Shown here in pieces: positions 3,126 through 64,000 of a stretch of DNA of 64,000 nucleotides. Below the pieces are notes generated by a model. That model worked only from the letters and a program-made list of their open reading frames with translations. It was not told the origin of the DNA and did not search any database. The position numbers and the translations under genes are program-made. Origin of the DNA: Actinomycetota bacterium (GTDB lineage: Bacteria > Actinomycetota > Aquicultoria > UBA3085 > Oleimmundimicrobiaceae); contig JASEGU010000001.1 in assembly GCA_030017835.1 (NCBI GenBank), positions 24,341 through 88,340 of the forward strand, read 5' to 3'. The stretch's first letter is position 1, and each line of letters begins with the position of its first letter.

Positions 3126-3165
3126 GGCGACCGTTAGTTTGGCGCCTTTTTCTTCATCTGAATTT
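3126..3165 (+). terminator. Possible weak terminator/attenuator after pilMNOP (AGGCG-13 nt loop-CGCCU + U-rich)
   Basis: It has a short 5-bp stem with a large loop followed by UUUUUCUUC. It lies between the pilP-like gene and aroC. Confidence 0.2.
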
Positions 3166-3192
3166 GTGCTCTAACTATTTTGAGGTGGAAAG

Positions 3193-4350
3193 ATGATAAA
3201 ATTTTCAACCGCGGGCGAATCACACGGTCCGGCTCTTGTGACGATAGTCGAAGGGGTTCCGGCCGGCCTTTCAATCAAAATAGATTCTATAAACTTCGAG
3301 CTCAAGCGGAGAAAGCTAGGCTATGGCCGTGGCGGACGGATGGATATCGAGACCGATAAAGCGGTGATCCTTTCGGGCGTCCGCCACGCAAGGAGCCTGG
3401 GAAGTCCGATTGCCCTAATGATAGAGAATCTCGACCACAAGAACTGGTCGACCCTGATGGCGACCGACGAGGTTAGCAAGGAAGCAGAAAGGATCACCGC
3501 GGCCCGGCCGGGCCACGCGGATCTTGCCGGCATGATGAAGATGGGTCTCTTTGACGTGCGCGACGTCTTGGAGAGGGCGAGTGCGCGCGAGACGGCGGCC
3601 AGGGTTGCGGCCGGCGCCATCTTCAAGCTAATACTGAAGGAGCTTGGCATCGAAGTATTGAGCCACGTTGTTAGCATAGGCAGAGTCGAGTCTAAGCCTG
3701 AAAGGCTTCCTGTGCCGAAGGATTTGGAAGCGATAGACGCCTCTCCCGTCCGCTCCTTCTCGCCCAAAGACGAGAAGGCCATGATTGAGGAGATTGAGCG
3801 CGCCAAAGATGCGGGCCACTCCGTTGGCGGTATTTTCGAGGTCTTAGCCTATGGGGCGCCGCCTGGTCTTGGCGGCTATCAATCTTTTACCGAACGCCTG
3901 GACGCAAGACTGGCCTCGGCCGTCATGTCGATTCCGGCCATAAAGGGAGTCGAATTTGGACGAGGCTTTGAGTTGGCTCATCTGCCCGGAGATGAAGCCC
4001 ACGATGAGATATTCCACGATAAAGTGAGGGGCTTCTTCAGGAAGACCAACTTTGCTGGCGGTCTGGAGGGCGGCATGACCAATGGGGAGACGCTTATCTT
4101 GCGGGCGGCCATGAAGCCGATACCGACCCTTGTCAAACCGCTTAAGACGGTGGACATAGTAAGCAAGGAAGAGAAAGAGGCGCTTAAAGAGCGCTCGGAC
4201 GTCTGCGCCGTTGCCGCCGCCGCCGTGGTAGCCGAATCTATGGTTGCCTTTGAAATCGCGCGGGCCGCTTTGGAAAAGTTCGGCGGCGATTCTCTGTCCG
4301 ATCTTAAGGTCAACTACCGCTCTTACCTTAAGAGGATTGGAAGCATCTAA
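3193..4350 (+). CDS. aroC: Chorismate synthase
   Basis: It carries the typical AroC N-terminus (FSTAGESHGPAL..EGVPAG) and is 385 aa. A good SD (GAGGTGGAAAG) precedes the ATG. Confidence 0.9.
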   Translation: MIKFSTAGESHGPALVTIVEGVPAGLSIKIDSINFELKRRKLGYGRGGRMDIETDKAVILSGVRHARSLGSPIALMIENLDHKNWSTLMATDEVSKEAERITAARPGHADLAGMMKMGLFDVRDVLERASARETAARVAAGAIFKLILKELGIEVLSHVVSIGRVESKPERLPVPKDLEAIDASPVRSFSPKDEKAMIEEIERAKDAGHSVGGIFEVLAYGAPPGLGGYQSFTERLDARLASAVMSIPAIKGVEFGRGFELAHLPGDEAHDEIFHDKVRGFFRKTNFAGGLEGGMTNGETLILRAAMKPIPTLVKPLKTVDIVSKEEKEALKERSDVCAVAAAAVVAESMVAFEIARAALEKFGGDSLSDLKVNYRSYLKRIGSI

Positions 4351-59070: not shown

Positions 59071-60106
59071 GCCGGCAGATCTAAATATTGCGGTCATCGG
59101 GGCCGGAAGCTGGGGCACGGCCATAGCTACCCTTCTGGCCGAGAAGGGGTTTGAAGTTGTCCTTTGGGCAAGGGACGCTGTTTTGGTTGAGGATATGAAG
59201 AGGCTCAAAAGAAATCCCCGCTACTTGACCGACCTCGATCTTCCAGAGACTTTGAGTTTCTCATCCGATCTCAAAGAAGCATTGCCTGGTGCGGGTCTTG
59301 TCGTGATGGCGGTGCCTTCCCACGGCATGCGTAAAGCGGCACGCTCAGCCAGAGAGCACCTTACAGGCAAGACAATAGTCAGCTTGGCCAAGGGGATAGA
59401 GGCGGAGACCTATCTTAGGATGAGCGAAGTCATAGCAAGCGAGCTTGGCCCGGGCTCCGAAAAGGATATCGCCGTGATATCTGGGCCCAATCATGCCGAA
59501 GAAGTGAGCCGGCGGGTGCCCAGCGCGACGGTCGCTGCGGCCAATGACAAGGAAGTCGCCAAGCGGGTTCAAGAGATATTTATGACGCCGTATTTTCGTG
59601 TCTACACCAATCCAGATATCATCGGCGTGGAGATGGCGGCGGCCTCCAAGAACGTAATAGCCTTAGCGACTGGCATGTCGGACGGGCTAGGCTACGGCGA
59701 TAATACCAGGGCCGCCCTTATGACCCGCGGCCTTGCCGAGATGACCCGCCTTGGCATAATCAAGGGGGCCGAGGCCTCTACTTTCTCTGGTCTGGCCGGC
59801 CTTGGTGACCTCATCGCCACCTGCACCAGCCTTCACAGCCGCAACCGAGCCACAGGCGAAAAAATAGCCAAAGGCATGACTCTTAGCGAGATAGCTAAGG
59901 AGACCTCAATGGTGGCCGAAGGGGTTACGGCCGCCAAAAACCTTCATGACCTAGCCGTCAAGGCCGGGCTCGACATGCCCATAACCGAAGCGGTCTTTCG
60001 CGTCTTGTACCAAGGGAAAAAGCCCAAGGACTGCGTGGGCGACCTGATGGCCCGGGGAGCCAAAGATGAGGCTGCGGCTCTGGGCCAGAGAATAAAACCT
60101 TGTTAA
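59048..60106 (+). CDS. gpsA: NAD(P)H-dependent glycerol-3-phosphate dehydrogenase
   Basis: It has a Rossmann motif (IAVIGAGSWGTA) and is 352 aa. TTG start. It lies in the der-plsY-gpsA order typical of Firmicutes-like genomes. Confidence 0.9.
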   Translation: MAKKVAIKPADLNIAVIGAGSWGTAIATLLAEKGFEVVLWARDAVLVEDMKRLKRNPRYLTDLDLPETLSFSSDLKEALPGAGLVVMAVPSHGMRKAARSAREHLTGKTIVSLAKGIEAETYLRMSEVIASELGPGSEKDIAVISGPNHAEEVSRRVPSATVAAANDKEVAKRVQEIFMTPYFRVYTNPDIIGVEMAAASKNVIALATGMSDGLGYGDNTRAALMTRGLAEMTRLGIIKGAEASTFSGLAGLGDLIATCTSLHSRNRATGEKIAKGMTLSEIAKETSMVAEGVTAAKNLHDLAVKAGLDMPITEAVFRVLYQGKKPKDCVGDLMARGAKDEAAALGQRIKPC

Positions 60107-60127
60107 GAAGTCCTAAAATGCTATAAT
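60100..60127 (+). promoter_or_regulatory. Sigma-70-type promoter with extended -10 (TTGTTA-16-TGcTATAAT) for tRNA-Pro
   Basis: The hexamers and TGn motif are about 35 nt upstream of the tRNA 5' end. It overlaps the gpsA stop region. Confidence 0.55.
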
Positions 60128-60161
60128 CTTTTTGCTATTTTTTAAAAAGCTTTTTAAGTGT

Positions 60162-60238
60162 CGGGGCGTGGCGCAGCTTGGTAGCGCACCAGGCTGGGGG
60201 TCTGGTGGTCGCTGGTTCGAATCCAGTCGCCCCGACCA
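60162..60238 (+). tRNA. tRNA-Pro (anticodon GGG), CCA encoded
   Basis: It folds manually into a cloverleaf with a 7-bp acceptor stem (CGGGGCG/CGCCCCG). The anticodon loop is CUGGGGG with U33 and G37. The T-loop is UUCGAAU. It ends in ACCA and is followed by a U-run. Confidence 0.85.
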
Positions 60239-60453
60239 TTTTTTGTCTTCTGCCGCCACATGATGATTGCAAGTTCAAAGCGATATAAACCTCCAAACGA
60301 GACTCACCTTTCGCTATCGGATGGAATTTGCTATTTGATAGCTGCTTTTATCCCTTTTGTCTTTCTAAAAAATTATCATACTTGCTACTAAGAGAGCCTT
60401 AGATTGGTTATAATGTTATACAGATCAACCAGACTTACTGGCAGGTGGTAGAG

Positions 60454-60678
60454 ATGATAGAACGGATATATATCGATCCCGAGACTTGTGGTGGAAGGCC
60501 CTGCATCAAAGGGACCAGGATTCCCGTCTATGTAATATTAGACCTGCTTGCAGCCAATTTTTCACCAAGTGGTATCGTCAAGGCATATCCCGATTTAACC
60601 GTCGAAGATATTAAGGCCGCCGTTGAATATGCCGCTTTTATCACCAAAGAGAGATCGATTAGACTTAGGGTCGGCTAG
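60454..60678 (+). CDS. DUF433-family protein (putative antitoxin)
   Basis: It is ~75 aa starting IERIYIDPETCGGRPCIKGTRIPV, typical of DUF433. It is immediately followed by a DUF5615 gene. An AGGTGG SD lies 5 nt before the ATG at 60454; a GTG 60445 is also possible. Confidence 0.65.
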   Translation: MIERIYIDPETCGGRPCIKGTRIPVYVILDLLAANFSPSGIVKAYPDLTVEDIKAAVEYAAFITKERSIRLRVG

Positions 60679-60681
60679 GAG

Positions 60682-60903
60682 ATGGATCTTTTAGTTGATA
60701 TGAACCTCTCCCCCGTAACCGTCAATTACTTGAACAGCATCGGTCACAACGCCGTTCATGCACGCGATTTAGGGCTCAAGAGGGCGAAAGATAAAGAGTT
60801 GCTAAAGGTTGCTGCTAGTCTGGGCAGGGTGGTAATAACCCAAGACCTCGACTTTGGAGAACTTATCTTTTTCTCGGATGAGAGCCCACGGCAGGCGCGA
60901 TAA
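60682..60903 (+). CDS. DUF5615-family protein (putative PIN-like toxin partner of DUF433)
   Basis: It is 73 aa. A 3-nt gap separates it from the DUF433 gene. The sequence style (DMNLSP..V..L...GH.AVH..DLGL) fits DUF5615. A TAGGAG SD is present. Confidence 0.6.
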   Translation: MDLLVDMNLSPVTVNYLNSIGHNAVHARDLGLKRAKDKELLKVAASLGRVVITQDLDFGELIFFSDESPRQAR

Positions 60904-61255
60904 TAATTCGCATAGCAGGCGCTACGCCCAAGAGAGTTAATCTCTATCTTGAAAAAGCCTTGGCCCTCATAAGAATAGAAGAGATTGAAAACAATGTGGC
61001 GATAGTAGAAGAGGATAAGATAAGGATTCACGAGAAAGGATAGTTTTAAGTATAGCAACCAGTTGCCAGGGCTATTTTTTAAATCATCAATCCTTCAGGC
61101 TTTTCTGCCAATTACCTCAGCTTCGCGTTAGCGGTGCTGACCCACACGTCCGATTGACTTACACTTACGGGTTTACTAATAACTGGTTTTGCCTTATAAT
61201 AAAAATATTATTATAACGTGACCTTATTTAAACTTAATCAAAATTTGCGGGCGCA

Positions 61256-62530
61256 ATGACCCGAAAGGAAAAATTGAGCAGAATGAACCATCCAAGGAAA
61301 ATGTTAATAGCTGGCGTCGCAACAATATTATGCATTGCAAGCTTTGCGCCTTTCTTTTTTATACCCCATGCCATCTCGGCCAGCGGCGGCCATACGGTAA
61401 CCTTCAATGTTGTCGCCCCGCCGGATGAAGGTGGCGGAGGCGGCGTTCTCCCATACACCGAGAAGGTGGAGCGCGTCTTTGGGCCGGACCGCTACCGCAC
61501 CGCCGCCACCGTCAGCCAAAAAGGCTGGCCGAAGGGGTCAACCTATGTAATCGTTTCGACCGGCGAAAATTTTCCTGACGGCCTAGCCGGTAGCGCCCTG
61601 GCCGGCGCTTATGGCTGTCCTATCCTCTTGACCGAGACTGGCGCCTTAAACTCCTATGCCAAGGGTGAGATAAATCGCTTGAAGGCAACCGGATGCTTCA
61701 TCTTGGGTGAAACAGGCGCCGTCAGTGACAGCGTGAGGGCTCAAATAATAGCTCAGACCGGCGCCGATAATATTACCAGGCTGGGAGGGATAGATCGCTA
61801 CGAGACGGCCGAGATTATTGCAGGGGCTGTCAAGGCTAAAACTTCAAGGGTGGGTAAGGTCATCATCGCAAGCGGCGAAGACTTCCCGGATGCTCTGGCC
61901 GTCTCTCCGCTTGCAGGTTACAAGGGGTTTCCCATCCTGCTGGTGAAGAAAGATAGCGTTCCGGCCTCCACGCAGAGCGCCATAAAGAGTCTCGGGGCAA
62001 CCTCTGCCATCGTGGTTGGCGGAAACGGGGTTGTAAGCGATGCGGCCTTCTCTTCCTTAGTAATCGGATCGCCTGGTTATGGGATAGCGGGCCGGATAGT
62101 GAGCCAGGCTACTAAAGAGAGGCTTGAAGATATGAAAACCGCCGCCTTGAGACTCTTGGGAATAACCACTGCCAAGCCCTCATCAAACATGGCCGCTGCG
62201 GCTTTCACTTCGGCCACAAGGCTGGCCGGAGCGGATAGATATGAGACGGCCGTAGCCGTAGCCGAGCATTCCAAATCGATCTACGGACTCTCTTATAACA
62301 CCACCTTAGCCGCTACCGGAGTACTCTTTCCCGATGCTTTGACCGGCGGGGCTTATGGGGCGCAGGTAGGCTCGGTCATGATCCTGGTCCATCCGGCCGA
62401 TTTAACCGCTTCAAAACCGACCAAGGACTTTCTAGCCGCAAACAGGGGAGCCATAAGCAAGGTTGTAATCTTGGGCGGGCCGGGAGCGGTCTCGGAGGCC
62501 GTTTTGGGTCAGATAGATGCTCTCATTTAG
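61256..62530 (+). CDS. Secreted cell-wall-binding protein: signal peptide + three CWB2 (cell wall binding repeat 2) domains
   Basis: It has a signal peptide (KMLIAGVATILCIASFAPFFFIPHAISA). Three repeats each start with the CWB2 signature (RVFGPDRYRTAATVSQ, RLGGIDRYETAEIIAG, RLAGADRYETAVAVAE). The alternative start is ATG 61283. Confidence 0.75.
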   Translation: MTRKEKLSRMNHPRKMLIAGVATILCIASFAPFFFIPHAISASGGHTVTFNVVAPPDEGGGGGVLPYTEKVERVFGPDRYRTAATVSQKGWPKGSTYVIVSTGENFPDGLAGSALAGAYGCPILLTETGALNSYAKGEINRLKATGCFILGETGAVSDSVRAQIIAQTGADNITRLGGIDRYETAEIIAGAVKAKTSRVGKVIIASGEDFPDALAVSPLAGYKGFPILLVKKDSVPASTQSAIKSLGATSAIVVGGNGVVSDAAFSSLVIGSPGYGIAGRIVSQATKERLEDMKTAALRLLGITTAKPSSNMAAAAFTSATRLAGADRYETAVAVAEHSKSIYGLSYNTTLAATGVLFPDALTGGAYGAQVGSVMILVHPADLTASKPTKDFLAANRGAISKVVILGGPGAVSEAVLGQIDALI

Positions 62531-62707
62531 TCAAATCGGTTTTCGGTCCTTATAAGCCATTTTCTTCTGAAAGTGCGGCCCGAAAAATAAAGGCGCCAAA
62601 ATTTTAACGGCCAAGAAGACGCGCCAATGCCTAAAAAACGTGGCTGAGCCTTGGTTTTTATTTTTTACTGCTTTTGCCGGCTAGCGAAAATAGTCGATAG
62701 ACGCATA

Positions 62708-62737
62708 TTGACAAACGCTAGGTTAAGGTTTTATAAT
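62708..62737 (+). promoter_or_regulatory. Near-consensus sigma-70 promoter (TTGACA-18-TATAAT) upstream of small secreted protein gene
   Basis: It has a perfect -35 and a perfect -10, followed by a ~110-nt leader containing AGGAGGTGG. Confidence 0.6.
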
Positions 62738-62848
62738 GAAAATCACAAAGAAGTGGTCACACAAAAGGCGGCCATTTTTAGTAACAAAAACATTAGGGGC
62801 AATATCTAAAAAGGCGAGGAGGTGGACTAAACGAACAAGAAGAACACA

Positions 62849-63394
62849 TTGAAGAGGAAGATGGTGGCCATGGCCAGCGTAGCGGCCTATCTTTTGGGTT
62901 CCACCACACTTGGATTTACCCCTGCAGCGGTGGCGGCAATCAAGACGGGAGATCATACGGTTACCTTTAATTATAAGGTGGCTATGGATCTGACACTTTC
63001 GACTGCAACTGTAAACTTCGGTGACGTATACGCTTACGATGGAGAATTGGTTGATAAATCTGGCGGGACAATCAATGTCAAGACCAACAAGAAATGGGGT
63101 CTCACAGTTGAGTCTTTGGGAAGAGACGGCGTTGAGGGCGGAGATGATGATAGTAAATTTGCAACGGCCGGTGCGGAGAGGATAGATGTAAACAAATTGA
63201 ACGTAACCTCGGCAGGGGGTTTTGTATTCAAACACGATATGACTGGAGCTCCGGTCCCTGTTTTGGAAAACCAGCTCAGAACGACGACCGGTGGAAGAGT
63301 AGCTAATTTAACATATACCCTCACTCTTGATGGAAATGAAGATTTGGCTGATGGCTATCGGACTGTGATACGCTACACCGCGTTTAATAGCTAA
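62849..63394 (+). CDS. Small secreted beta-rich protein, TasA/camelysin-like (putative fibre subunit)
   Basis: It has a signal peptide (MKRKMVAMASVAAYLLGSTTLGFTPAAVAA). Its mature N-terminus (IKTGDHTVTFNYKVAMDLTL) resembles the TasA/CalY N-terminal segment (..TF...GTLDL(S/T)). It is 181 aa, G/T/N-rich and ends at a strong terminator. Confidence 0.45.
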   Translation: MKRKMVAMASVAAYLLGSTTLGFTPAAVAAIKTGDHTVTFNYKVAMDLTLSTATVNFGDVYAYDGELVDKSGGTINVKTNKKWGLTVESLGRDGVEGGDDDSKFATAGAERIDVNKLNVTSAGGFVFKHDMTGAPVPVLENQLRTTTGGRVANLTYTLTLDGNEDLADGYRTVIRYTAFNS

Positions 63395-63410
63395 ACATTT
63401 AAGTTTATGT

Positions 63411-63441
63411 AAAAAAACCCACCTTGAGGTGGGTTTTTTTA
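63411..63441 (+). terminator. Rho-independent terminator (CCCACC-UUGA-GGUGGG + U7), A-tract upstream (bidirectional-capable)
   Basis: A perfect 6-bp GC stem with a tetraloop is flanked by A7 and T7. It lies 17 nt after the stop codon. Confidence 0.8.
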
Positions 63442-63524
63442 TTAATATTCATCTAGGTAGCAATATGTCTTTAAATATCATATAATATTTAGAGTTGGCC
63501 GATAACACCTTTTGGGGTGAGTTT

Positions 63525-64000
63525 ATGCATAGAAGATTGTTAACTGTCCTTATTTCGATTTTATTATTTGTCACTTTAGCCCATCCGTCTCTTGCTCAAG
63601 AGATAAACATCGGGGTAACTCCCTCAAAGCTTGATTTCGAAATAAGGGCGGGCGACAGTTACACCACAAAAATAAGAGTATCGAATAATTCGGACTTAAC
63701 TTCCCATGTCATCGCCTATGCGGGCGACTACTCAGTATCGCAGACCAACGTCTATAAATTCTTCGACGCTGGAGAGATGGAGGCATCCAACGCCAAGTGG
63801 ATAACCATCACCCCAAATGACTTCCATATCCCGCCCGGCGGGGTCCAGGAGGTCACCTTGACCCTGAAGGCCCCAATGGGTATCCTCTACGGCACCCATC
63901 ACAGCGCCGTCTTCTTTGAGACCAAATTGGATCCGATACAAGGCGAGAAGGGCATGGTTGGTCAGGTGGCCAGGATTGGCACAGCCGTTGTCTCGGCCGT
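63525..64000 (+). CDS. Secreted cell-surface protein, 5' partial (DUF916-like N-terminal domain), runs off window end
   Basis: ATG at 63525 has a GGGGTGA SD. It has a signal peptide (LLTVLISILLFVTLAHPSLAQE). The pattern INIGVTPSKLDFEIRAGDSYTTKIRVSNNS...ITITPNDFHIPPGGVQEVTLTL is typical of DUF916-like surface proteins. No stop codon occurs before the window end. Confidence 0.4.
   Translation, partial: MHRRLLTVLISILLFVTLAHPSLAQEINIGVTPSKLDFEIRAGDSYTTKIRVSNNSDLTSHVIAYAGDYSVSQTNVYKFFDAGEMEASNAKWITITPNDFHIPPGGVQEVTLTLKAPMGILYGTHHSAVFFETKLDPIQGEKGMVGQVARIGTAVVSA

Follow-up and report, generated by a model that had tools for sequence, protein, structure and literature searches.

The locus described here raises the question of how a surface protein complex is held at the cell wall when its presumptive anchor offers little beyond a wall-binding module and a short peptide. 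It lies at the 3' end of a stretch of 64,000 nucleotides from an Actinomycetota bacterium (assembly GCA_030017835.1, contig JASEGU010000001.1, positions 24,341 to 88,340 of the forward strand). We call this whole stretch the window and count positions within it. Its last 2.7 kb hold three genes on the same strand, all for secreted proteins: a wall anchor with three CWB2 repeats, a protein of 181 residues (the small subunit), and the 5' part of a gene for a predicted membrane protein with immunoglobulin-like (Ig) domains and a transmembrane (TM) helix (the Ig-Ig-TM protein). The first two share the six-residue strand HTVTFN. We read the locus as a divergent member of a known cluster type, WxL/Csc, found here in Actinomycetota and with CWB2 repeats as its anchoring module. 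We hold it to be an even call that the CWB2 protein acts as a CscD-like anchor, tethering the complex through trans beta-strand complementation.

One strand behind two signal peptides

The anchor gene (61256..62530, + strand) encodes 424 residues: a signal peptide, then a flexible tail (SGGHTVTFNVVAPPDEGGGGG, about 25 residues) and the CWB2 repeats. An alternative start at 61301 (M16) corresponds to the NCBI model of 409 residues (P0018). Three stretches of the protein match Pfam CW_binding_2 (PF04122), with an expectation value (E) of 1.9e-55 and 185.8 bits against a cut-off of 24.9. CWB2 was the sole family in the Pfam scan, which returned no enzymatic domain, in agreement with the initial annotation of consecutive secreted proteins that include a triple-CWB2 protein without an enzyme. 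Triplets of CWB2 repeats bind secondary cell-wall polymers non-covalently. The triple module, far above the Pfam threshold, resembles that of the CWB2 surface proteins of Clostridioides difficile and its relatives; unlike those, the anchor has no functional passenger domain, and its passenger is the peptide of about 25 residues.

In an AlphaFold2 (AF2) model of the anchor, the CWB2 core forms high-confidence alpha/beta repeats with a predicted local distance difference test score (pLDDT) of about 97. Residues 1-64 have a pLDDT below 50 and no secondary structure; the tail is therefore placed outside the fold of its own protein, and the idea that it forms part of the CWB2 fold was ruled out. 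The model also contains an insert between repeats 2 and 3 (residues ~270-318; 62063-62210), which consists of a long helix (277-300) and a low-confidence loop.

Two copies of HTVTFN, and no others, are present in the window when it is translated in six frames, each a few residues past a signal peptide, which bears out the early remark that the 424- and 181-residue proteins share it. The anchor copy (codons 61391..61408, +) stands in the context SGGHTVTFN and is followed by VVAPP and a linker of five glycines. The copy in the small subunit (62954..62971, +) stands in TGDHTVTFN, within a predicted mature N-terminus that reads IKTGDHTVTFNYKVAMDLTL, and corresponds to the first beta-strand of the domain. 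Because both proteins have a glycine two residues ahead of the motif, the common element is G-x-HTVTFN. Sixteen of the 18 coding bases are identical between the copies, the differences are synonymous only, and the flanks of these bases have no nucleotide similarity between the two genes. These features argue for selection on the peptide rather than a recent duplication, which was ruled out as the source of the motif since the similarity ends outside the 18 bases. By our own estimate, the chance of an exact shared 6-mer at such a position is about 1e-6. Local alignment of the whole proteins was of modest significance, its score being reached by 20 of 500 shuffles.

In small subunits and anchors alike, the motif lies 3-7 residues past the predicted signal-peptidase site. 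We ran a relaxed regular expression for the motif over all six-frame open reading frames (ORFs) of part of the loci compared here (88,000 residues), and its matches were almost confined to small subunits and anchors, always directly after the signal peptide. An N-terminal histidine-brace metal site was also considered, as one metalloprotein paper mentions DUF916, and was rejected because the histidine is found 4-7 residues beyond the point where cleavage is predicted, and relatives have Q, T or S in its place.

The closest CWB2 homolog of the anchor, P0019 from another metagenome-assembled genome (MAG; locus L007), is 48% identical and has the same layout: a TM or signal segment, about 25 further residues, GQVIRFNVIRRP, poly-Gly and CWB2. 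Its segment QVIRFNVIRRP aligns with the HTVTFN region of the anchor, and the inward-facing alternate positions (V/I, F, V) are kept.

The small subunit and its probable WxL/Csc kin

The small-subunit gene (62849..63394, +; TTG start) encodes a predicted secreted, divergent WxL-like beta-sandwich identical to the NCBI protein QMD53_00445, a hypothetical protein of an Actinomycetota bacterium MAG that is encoded on a 163-kb contig. A phmmer search with it against 1.84 billion representatives gave 17 matches, including 13 true representatives of its family. Three long matches (the PEGA-repeat kinase P0012, and P0013 and P0016 with BACON repeats) were set aside as spurious, being due to generic T-I-T-F-N strands. 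A word-index search with the small protein returned only itself, and a scan of genome contigs with it returned nothing. True members are secreted and have 167-184 residues, or are larger, with cupredoxin and FN3 domains ahead of a C-terminal copy of the domain. All ten family clusters that we looked up were singletons, so the family is taken to be rare. Most small members have H-x-V-T/S-F a few residues past the signal peptide (the closest being HTVTFN in P0007 and P0015, HTVTFD in P0006 and HTVSFN in P0008), and HTVTFN is therefore read as the conserved first strand of the domain. The motifs FGDV.P, KSNxxWxL and a C-terminal Y..TI.YT.T are also common to the family. Three members of 383-408 residues (P0009, P0010, P0014) join a cupredoxin/plastocyanin-like domain and FN3 to a C-terminal WxL-like domain, which suggests that the latter serves redox proteins as a general module for surface attachment or assembly.

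An AF2 model of the small subunit, built from 14 family sequences (pLDDT 70.7, predicted template-modeling score 0.66), has an N-terminal strand at 31-42, a low-confidence linker at 46-62, and then a beta-sandwich; its W-x-L motif reads KKWGLTV and its C-terminal motif Y..I.YT. Foldseek with this model found no match at E ≤1e-3, and the best was a fimbrial protein (E 5.6e-3, probability 0.99). The initial annotation had seen a TasA/camelysin-like N-terminus in this protein and expected a TasA-like fold. Neither idea held up: no tool reproduced the N-terminal resemblance, TasA is absent from both fold-neighbor lists of the model, and Pfam/NCBIfam gave no Peptidase_M73 or SipW-type signal peptide at E ≤1 for the locus or E ≤10 for the family. 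No sipW-like signal peptidase is encoded within 60000-64000 of the window. What the locus shares with the TasA/TapA/SipW system of Bacillus subtilis (PMC9674648, PMC10151520) is a concept, in that TapA carries the N-terminal strand of TasA and complements it in trans, and the fact that both systems are secreted and sortase-free. In contrast to that system, the accessory role here would fall to a CWB2 wall binder that is not TapA-like, and the surrounding genes are of WxL/Csc type.

In the WxL/Csc clusters of Lactobacillales and Bacillales, CscA is the WxLIP protein (DUF916-DUF3324-TM), CscB a small WxL protein, CscC a large WxL protein and CscD a small LPXTG protein (Siezen 2006, PMC1534035; Hassan & Williamson, PMC9772566 and PMC10599100). 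The order small subunit, Ig-Ig-TM protein, large protein with a C-terminal subunit-like domain is found in the loci L001, L002, L005, L008, L015 and L017/L018, with a second Ig-Ig-TM gene after the large protein in L001 and L002. In the window, the third gene (63525..64000, +) is WxLIP/DUF916-like and is cut by the window end after 158 codons, which encode a signal peptide and the first Ig-like domain. A WxLIP-like gene thus adjoins the small-subunit gene in the window and in six further loci. The large protein of our locus lies past the end of the window, where a protein of about 1000 residues with a C-terminal WxL-like domain should be expected. The Ig-Ig-TM proteins of these loci have 309-404 residues, with a signal peptide, an Ig-like region and a C-terminal TM helix; in orthologs of 309-374 residues, the sequence reads as two Ig-like domains and a hydrophobic C-terminal helix with a basic tail. 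The large proteins (550-1060 residues) vary in their N-terminal domains and share homology with the small subunit over the last ~150 residues (E 1.6e-8).

The Ig-Ig-TM protein links the locus to DUF916. By blastp, the product of the ORF at 63525 matches its counterparts in L002 and L001 (E 2e-41 and 3e-34); a search with this partial product found no match. With the Ig-Ig-TM alignment, the scan of genome contigs found one locus only, in Saccharibacteria (L004), and a metagenome scan found one diderm-type locus. An alignment of the window fragment with the L002 and L001 orthologs reaches L004 at E 5e-13. The L004 protein in turn reaches DUF916 proteins of Clavibacter, Streptomyces, Cellulosimicrobium and Paenibacillus (best E 7e-12, Clavibacter), which completes a homology chain from the window ORF to annotated DUF916 proteins via L002 and L004. 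The L002 protein also reaches, by tblastn, 'DUF916 domain-containing proteins' on Arthrobacter plasmids (E 2e-4). Against the WxLIP_PGBD model (PF06030), the window fragment scores 14.6 bits (E 0.034) and its relatives score 12.7-26.2 bits over nearly the whole model (E 0.14 to 8.5e-6), all below the gathering score of 27.3.

The small subunit may be connected to WxL through actinobacterial plasmids, where the gene for a secreted protein of about 170 residues lies directly 5' of a DUF916 gene. The one in Curtobacterium bears the annotation 'WxL domain-containing protein' and scores 27.3 bits against the Pfam WxL gathering score of 25; three of four such proteins match WxL. Mature actinobacterial WxL proteins start with DTTVTFxV. 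With signal peptides included, hhalign of the small-subunit family against four of them gave a probability of 95.4% (E 1.8e-8). Gene layout, the DUF916 homology chain and the WxL profile match are why we file the locus as the putative start of a very divergent WxL/Csc-type cluster, with the 181-residue protein as a predicted remote WxL-domain relative, the small WxL (CscB-like) component.

The wider set of loci holds several variants of this layout. WxL/DUF916 gene pairs are common on plasmids of Arthrobacter, Curtobacterium, Streptomyces, Kitasatospora and Clavibacter (L010, L012, L013, L014, L020), and the Clavibacter pair is flanked by GH43 glycoside hydrolase genes, which fits the idea of plant-polysaccharide use. 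In L017 (10705-12459) and the P0007 locus, the Ig-Ig-TM protein continues past its TM helix with a long charged linker and a pair of LysM domains, an odd topology if the helix truly spans the membrane. The fifth gene of L001 (12992-13552) encodes 186 residues with two N-terminal TM segments, a strand like that of the subunit (AKQQVSFNVKETSDIEIS) and a reduced beta domain ending in VTYGIIPY; it may be a membrane-anchored variant of an anchor or terminator. L006 (9001-15471) and L011 (Deinococcus plasmid CP058536, 4966-10568) look like diderm-type relatives. Each encodes a TM-less Ig-Ig protein of DUF916-like type (the two match at E 8e-16) and a partner of 950-1018 residues with SdrD_B/CarboxypepD_reg repeats, a layout reminiscent of chaperone/usher systems. 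L006 also encodes subunit-like proteins of 178 residues and a 467-residue protein made of three tandem subunit-like domains. Finally, L004 (876-4823; Candidatus Saccharibacteria MAG) and L008 (8288-9981) each encode a secreted protein ending in a dockerin and, after it, a cohesin protein that ends in a TM helix; the pair would be an unusual non-cellulosomal surface tether.

Strand-bearing anchors in other clusters

The combination of a free strand with an anchoring module is not confined to the window. In L008/L009, a protein of 307 residues consists of a signal peptide (..VSA), DSHILKFNVLSP, a Big_1 domain, poly-Gly and a dockerin. Its gene in L008 lies two genes 5' of the small subunit (..DNHTVTFDV..), with the cohesin protein and its C-terminal TM helix encoded in between. 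In L017/L018, a protein of 399 residues has a signal peptide, TDQSVTMDV (TDQSVTMDVQSAFEV), two Big_1 domains, a linker and a C-terminal TM helix, and its gene lies directly 5' of a small subunit that starts ADQNITFSV (ADQNITFSVLSSISL). The first residue of the motif matches within each locus, being histidine in both partners in the window and L008 and glutamine in both in L017. Three divergent loci therefore have an anchor gene one or two genes 5' of the small subunit, with CWB2, dockerin or a C-terminal TM helix as the module, and the strand sharing that the initial annotation noted in the window is seen in all three.

The canonical clusters have the same arrangement. A tblastn search from the Paenibacillus WxL protein did not reach the clusters of lactic acid bacteria, and we located canonical clusters on Firmicutes plasmids with a 63-residue probe written from the published DUF916 motif, which was used for locating only. 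The canonical order is CscC, CscD (LPXTG), CscB (WxL), CscA (DUF916), with the anchor gene directly 5' of the small WxL gene. The order CscD-CscB-CscA in L023, L025, L026, L028 and L029 is that of the window. The mature N-termini of CscD and WxL proteins are alike in E. innesii (pEIDB1, L025; AEAGAYDSNGVTSF and AEAASYTSNGAVDF), E. gilvus (ADAEYDSNGVTAF and ADTDYTSNGAVEF), E. wangshanyuanii (GITFYDEETT and GTITYEEDTT) and E. faecium pEfm12493 (TSHAGIYFNGYDG and TSNATIKFLPGDG). The annotation of L029 (E. gilvus pCR1A) splits the CscD-like gene (3141-3526) into two overlapping hypothetical ORFs, the first without LPXTG; a frameshift that made it a pseudogene, or a sequencing error, is the probable cause.

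We quantified the resemblance in two ways. At the level of classes it is clear: anchors are closer to WxL N-termini than are other secreted proteins of the same clusters (means 31.6 vs 21.7, Mann-Whitney p 0.017). For pairing within clusters, the cognate score was reached by 85 of 5040 anchor permutations in the seven canonical clusters, and the cognate assignment was the best of 6 in the three divergent ones. Across all ten clusters it was reached by 14 of 200,000 permutations, a figure that is inflated because of the two-block structure of the cluster set. What the sequences show directly are these features, the family relationships, a gene order that recurs, and the recurrence of a subunit-like strand joined to an anchor module. 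In the literature searched, we did not find strand mimicry between anchor and WxL protein described, and this apparently undescribed feature gives a general insight into how the anchor component may work beyond this locus.

Mechanism and alternatives

Published work on WxL/Csc proteins leaves room for such a role. CscD was described as an 'extremely short' LPXTG protein with only 40-60 residues from signal peptide to sorting motif, and was proposed to anchor other Csc proteins 'through as yet unknown interactions' (Siezen 2006, PMC1534035). In predictions, the N-terminal strand of WxL proteins covers the hydrophobic WxL platform from the end of a long, unstructured tether, and a rearrangement of it was suspected (PMC9772566). 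AF2 work places a hairpin strand of WxLIP in trans in a gap of the WxL sandwich, beside the WxL N-terminal strand (PMC10599100). Set against these models, a trans strand donor is the simplest reading of our anchor, because the protein is a free strand copy joined to a wall-binding module.

The proposed mechanism would run as follows. The 181-residue protein would be a secreted CscB-like beta-sandwich, with a flexible segment between its first strand, HTVTFN, and its body, and the next gene would encode a WxLIP/CscA-like membrane-anchored Ig-Ig protein. The 424-residue protein would be the functional counterpart of the tiny LPXTG protein CscD, held non-covalently through its CWB2 repeats. It has the CscD-type layout of signal peptide, short peptide and wall-attachment device, and its gene lies directly 5' of the small-subunit gene; because it has no LPXTG motif and is anchored by three CWB2 repeats, we treat it as a CscD analog and not as a member of the CscD family. 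Its free tail, a copy of the WxL-like N-terminal strand, would most likely pair in trans with the WxL-like domain of the small protein, the large protein or both, by strand complementation or strand swap. The complex would thereby be tethered to the wall polymer by a Gly-rich leash. We infer the physical insertion of the strand, and its stoichiometry, from sequence.

The likeness to WxL/Csc systems extends to the components and their order (anchor, small beta-sandwich, Ig-Ig-TM protein, large protein ending in the same domain), to a probable remote kinship of the small protein with WxL and the remote kinship of the Ig-Ig-TM protein with DUF916, to the N-terminal strand on a flexible tether, and to an anchor that is little beyond a short peptide and a wall-attachment device. 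The locus differs in that its sequences have diverged beyond the reach of the Pfam WxL and WxLIP models and that Y-T-x-T replaces the second W-x-L. The anchor is a non-covalent CWB2 protein, or in the related loci dockerin/cohesin or a TM helix, in place of LPXTG/sortase. The hosts also differ: two surveys place more than 91% of WxL domains in Firmicutes, mostly Lactobacillales and Bacillales (PMC9772566, PMC10599100), whereas those here are uncultured Actinomycetota and possibly other uncultured lineages (one Saccharibacteria locus, L004).

Several results weigh against this interpretation. Neither the small subunit nor any of 14 family members matches Pfam WxL (PF13731) at E ≤10. The small subunit has one W-x-L motif only, with RYTAF / YTxT where the second would be; a WxL protein of Paenibacillus, annotated as such by Pfam, reads FTYTAT there. 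When the hhalign comparison is restricted to mature parts, the probability falls to 72% (P 3.3e-5) over 127 collinear columns, which run from the first strand to the C-terminal motif. Short strands rich in T, V and F are common, and BACON and PEGA repeats with similar strands produced the spurious matches mentioned above. No CWB2 or other strand-bearing anchor gene lies beside the small subunit in L001 and L005, and thus the anchor is not obligatory; the sequences of L002 and L015 do not include the upstream flank. No small-subunit cluster lies within 8-10 kb of the CWB2 homolog in L007. The likeness of CscD and WxL N-termini is weaker in L021, L023 and L026, and 41 of 720 permutations reach the cognate score once L029, which is like L025, is dropped. 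The cluster-specific anchor/WxL signal is therefore modest.

The transcription signals of the small-subunit gene bear on the first alternative. A predicted promoter (62708..62737, +) with TTGACA, an 18-nt spacer and TATAAT matches the sigma-70-type consensus at 12 of 12 positions. A bidirectional intrinsic terminator (63409..63442) lies 3' of the gene, with an A-run, a 15-bp stem including A-U pairs, and a T-run; its hairpin (free energy -19.9 kcal/mol, z -5.4) was equaled in stability by none of 200 shuffles. Both elements had been noted in the initial annotation, and they suggest that the small subunit may be highly expressed. A search of the ~105-nt leader for a riboswitch or other leader RNA matched no Rfam family. 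The strongest Shine-Dalgarno-like sequence in the area, GAGGAGG (62816-62822), lies 27 nt 5' of the TTG at 62849, and further in-frame ATG/GTG codons occur at 62861, 62864 and 62870; we tentatively favor the TTG because homologs keep the basic MK(R/K)K n-region that follows from it.

Farther upstream (60162-61250), the cluster does not directly follow tRNA-Pro(GGG) (60162..60238), as had been stated. Between this tRNA gene and the CWB2 gene lies a pair encoding DUF433 (77 residues) and DUF5615/PIN-like (73 residues) proteins (60445..60903). The pair resembles a toxin-antitoxin pair, and its 73-residue product is shorter than the 110-position profile. The gap after it is AT-rich (GC 0.41-0.47 vs ~0.52 for the whole window). 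The surface-protein locus may thus lie within a variable region beside tRNA-Pro.

With the promoter and terminator bracketing the small gene alone, as for a major subunit, the small subunits could instead polymerize head to tail into a fiber, each donating HTVTFN to the groove of the preceding one, which is the fiber idea of the initial annotation with another protein family in place of TasA. The Ig-Ig-TM protein would then be a membrane chaperone, the C-terminal domain of the large protein a distal tip, and the CWB2 protein a proximal cap and anchor. We consider this reading unlikely, and the points in its favor are individually weak. The PDB matches to the N-terminal strand region of the family profile are 9ikk and 9ikj (E 0.17 and 0.52), the TLP-1a/b fibrils from Tsinghua Lotus Pond found by CryoSeek (PMC11494351), and these align N-terminus to N-terminus, QNVTVTMDLQPVLQL to HTVTFN (more broadly, QNVTVTMDLQ in TLP compared with HTVTFNYKVAMDL). 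TLP-1 polymerizes by N-terminal n+4 donor-strand exchange (PMC11494351); that exchange is proven for TLP-1, whereas our small subunit is known from its sequence and an AF2 model. Both are secreted beta-rich proteins, and the TLP protomers are larger (~236 residues) with homologs from Flavobacteriales-like diderms. The match is non-significant (E 0.17-0.5), and a broader profile does no better (E 0.34).

Chaperone-usher pili (Fim/Pap, Csu/SCPU, Dr adhesins) provide the other comparison for a fiber. They likewise have an Ig-Ig accessory protein and a two-part 'adhesin' with a C-terminal subunit-like domain, and the strand-only anchor would correspond to a terminator. Weak SCPU and DUF4402 Pfam matches in family members, pilin-like fold neighbors of the small-subunit model, and the pairing of a TM-less DUF916-like protein with a ~1000-residue protein in L006 and the Deinococcus locus L011 point the same way. 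In contrast to those pili, the host here is monoderm, the loci contain no outer-membrane usher, and the accessory protein is membrane-anchored and related to DUF916 instead of PapD, with no significant sequence similarity. WxL proteins are described as peptidoglycan-binding monomers, no WxL fiber has been reported, and no paper in the literature searched links WxL with donor strands. AF2 confidently places the N-terminal strand within the monomer, which is compatible with self-complementation, and an internal equivalent of the strand is kept in the large proteins and cupredoxin fusions.

A broader form of this idea, to which we also assign a low probability, is that WxL-type clusters in general, the canonical ones included, are sortase-independent, chaperone-assisted donor-strand pili or tethers of monoderms. 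The small WxL protein would then be the polymerizing subunit and WxLIP a membrane chaperone that occupies its groove ahead of assembly; the large WxL protein would serve as adhesin at the tip, and CscD or the CWB2, dockerin or TM anchor as the terminator that fastens the base. Such systems would share ancestry with the orphan TLP-1 fibrils and with the diderm variants of L006 and Deinococcus.

It is less probable still that the shared motif is a targeting or handling signal, by which one factor recognizes both proteins after export without any stable binding between anchor and subunit. The constant spacing of the motif from the signal-peptidase site would suit such a signal, and the factor could be a dedicated peptidase, or else the WxLIP-like Ig-Ig-TM protein in the role of a holdase. 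There is precedent in TasA and TapA, matrix proteins that share a dedicated signal peptidase. Published AF2 models also have WxLIP touching WxL beside its N-terminus (PMC10599100). However, the large proteins and the cupredoxin-FN3 fusions carry an equivalent strand internally, far from any signal peptide, and the strand is therefore better seen as a structural element of the domain. The alternation of conserved positions (V/I, F, V) fits one face of a packed beta-strand, and neither a SipW-type signal peptide nor an extra peptidase was detected in the locus.

Least probable, to the point of being improbable outright, is that the two proteins have no functional link, the anchor being an ordinary wall-bound or S-layer-associated CWB2 protein whose strand arose by chance or is a relic of old 5'-end recombination with a WxL-like gene: the CWB2 gene is outside the conserved cluster in L001 and L005, its closest homolog is in an unrelated neighborhood, CWB2 proteins are very numerous in related MAGs (2968 matches at E ≤1e-20) and the whole-protein alignment is marginal, but chance fits poorly with an exact 6-mer and its preceding glycine at the same place relative to the signal peptide, with synonymous-only differences between dissimilar flanks, with a strand and Gly-linker kept at 48% overall identity, and with independent recurrence on dockerin, TM and LPXTG anchors.

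Tethering by the anchor strand is thus the reading that we prefer. The initial proposal of a wall-anchored partner that shares its subunit's strand survives without its TasA/TapA assignment: the anchor has no catalytic domain, the strand recurs with other anchors, P0019 has the same architecture, and CscD mimics its WxL neighbor. The proposal also took the system to be undescribed, which gives way to a divergent WxL/Csc cluster, a wall-anchored CscD having been put forward in 2006 (PMC1534035). An anchor that shares the strand of the subunit turns out to be a general arrangement, and the earlier idea was right in spirit.

WxL/Csc clusters are widespread in enterococci, listeriae and lactobacilli, and have been tied to adhesion, virulence and the use of plant polysaccharides. 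How the complex holds together and fastens to the wall has been a standing question since 2006. The window provides an unusually clear case, in which the anchor is nothing beyond a wall-binding module and a copy of the first strand of its partner. Together with the dockerin, TM and LPXTG variants, it leads to a simple idea that can be tested directly, namely that the anchor peptide complements the WxL domain with a strand in trans. The range of the cluster type now reaches deep-branching Actinomycetota, and possibly lineages resembling the candidate phyla radiation (one Saccharibacteria locus, L004), and the TLP-1 fibrils from the environment, orphans so far, may find their family here. Should the mechanism hold, pathogens could be made to shed their WxL adhesin complexes with short peptides that imitate the strand.

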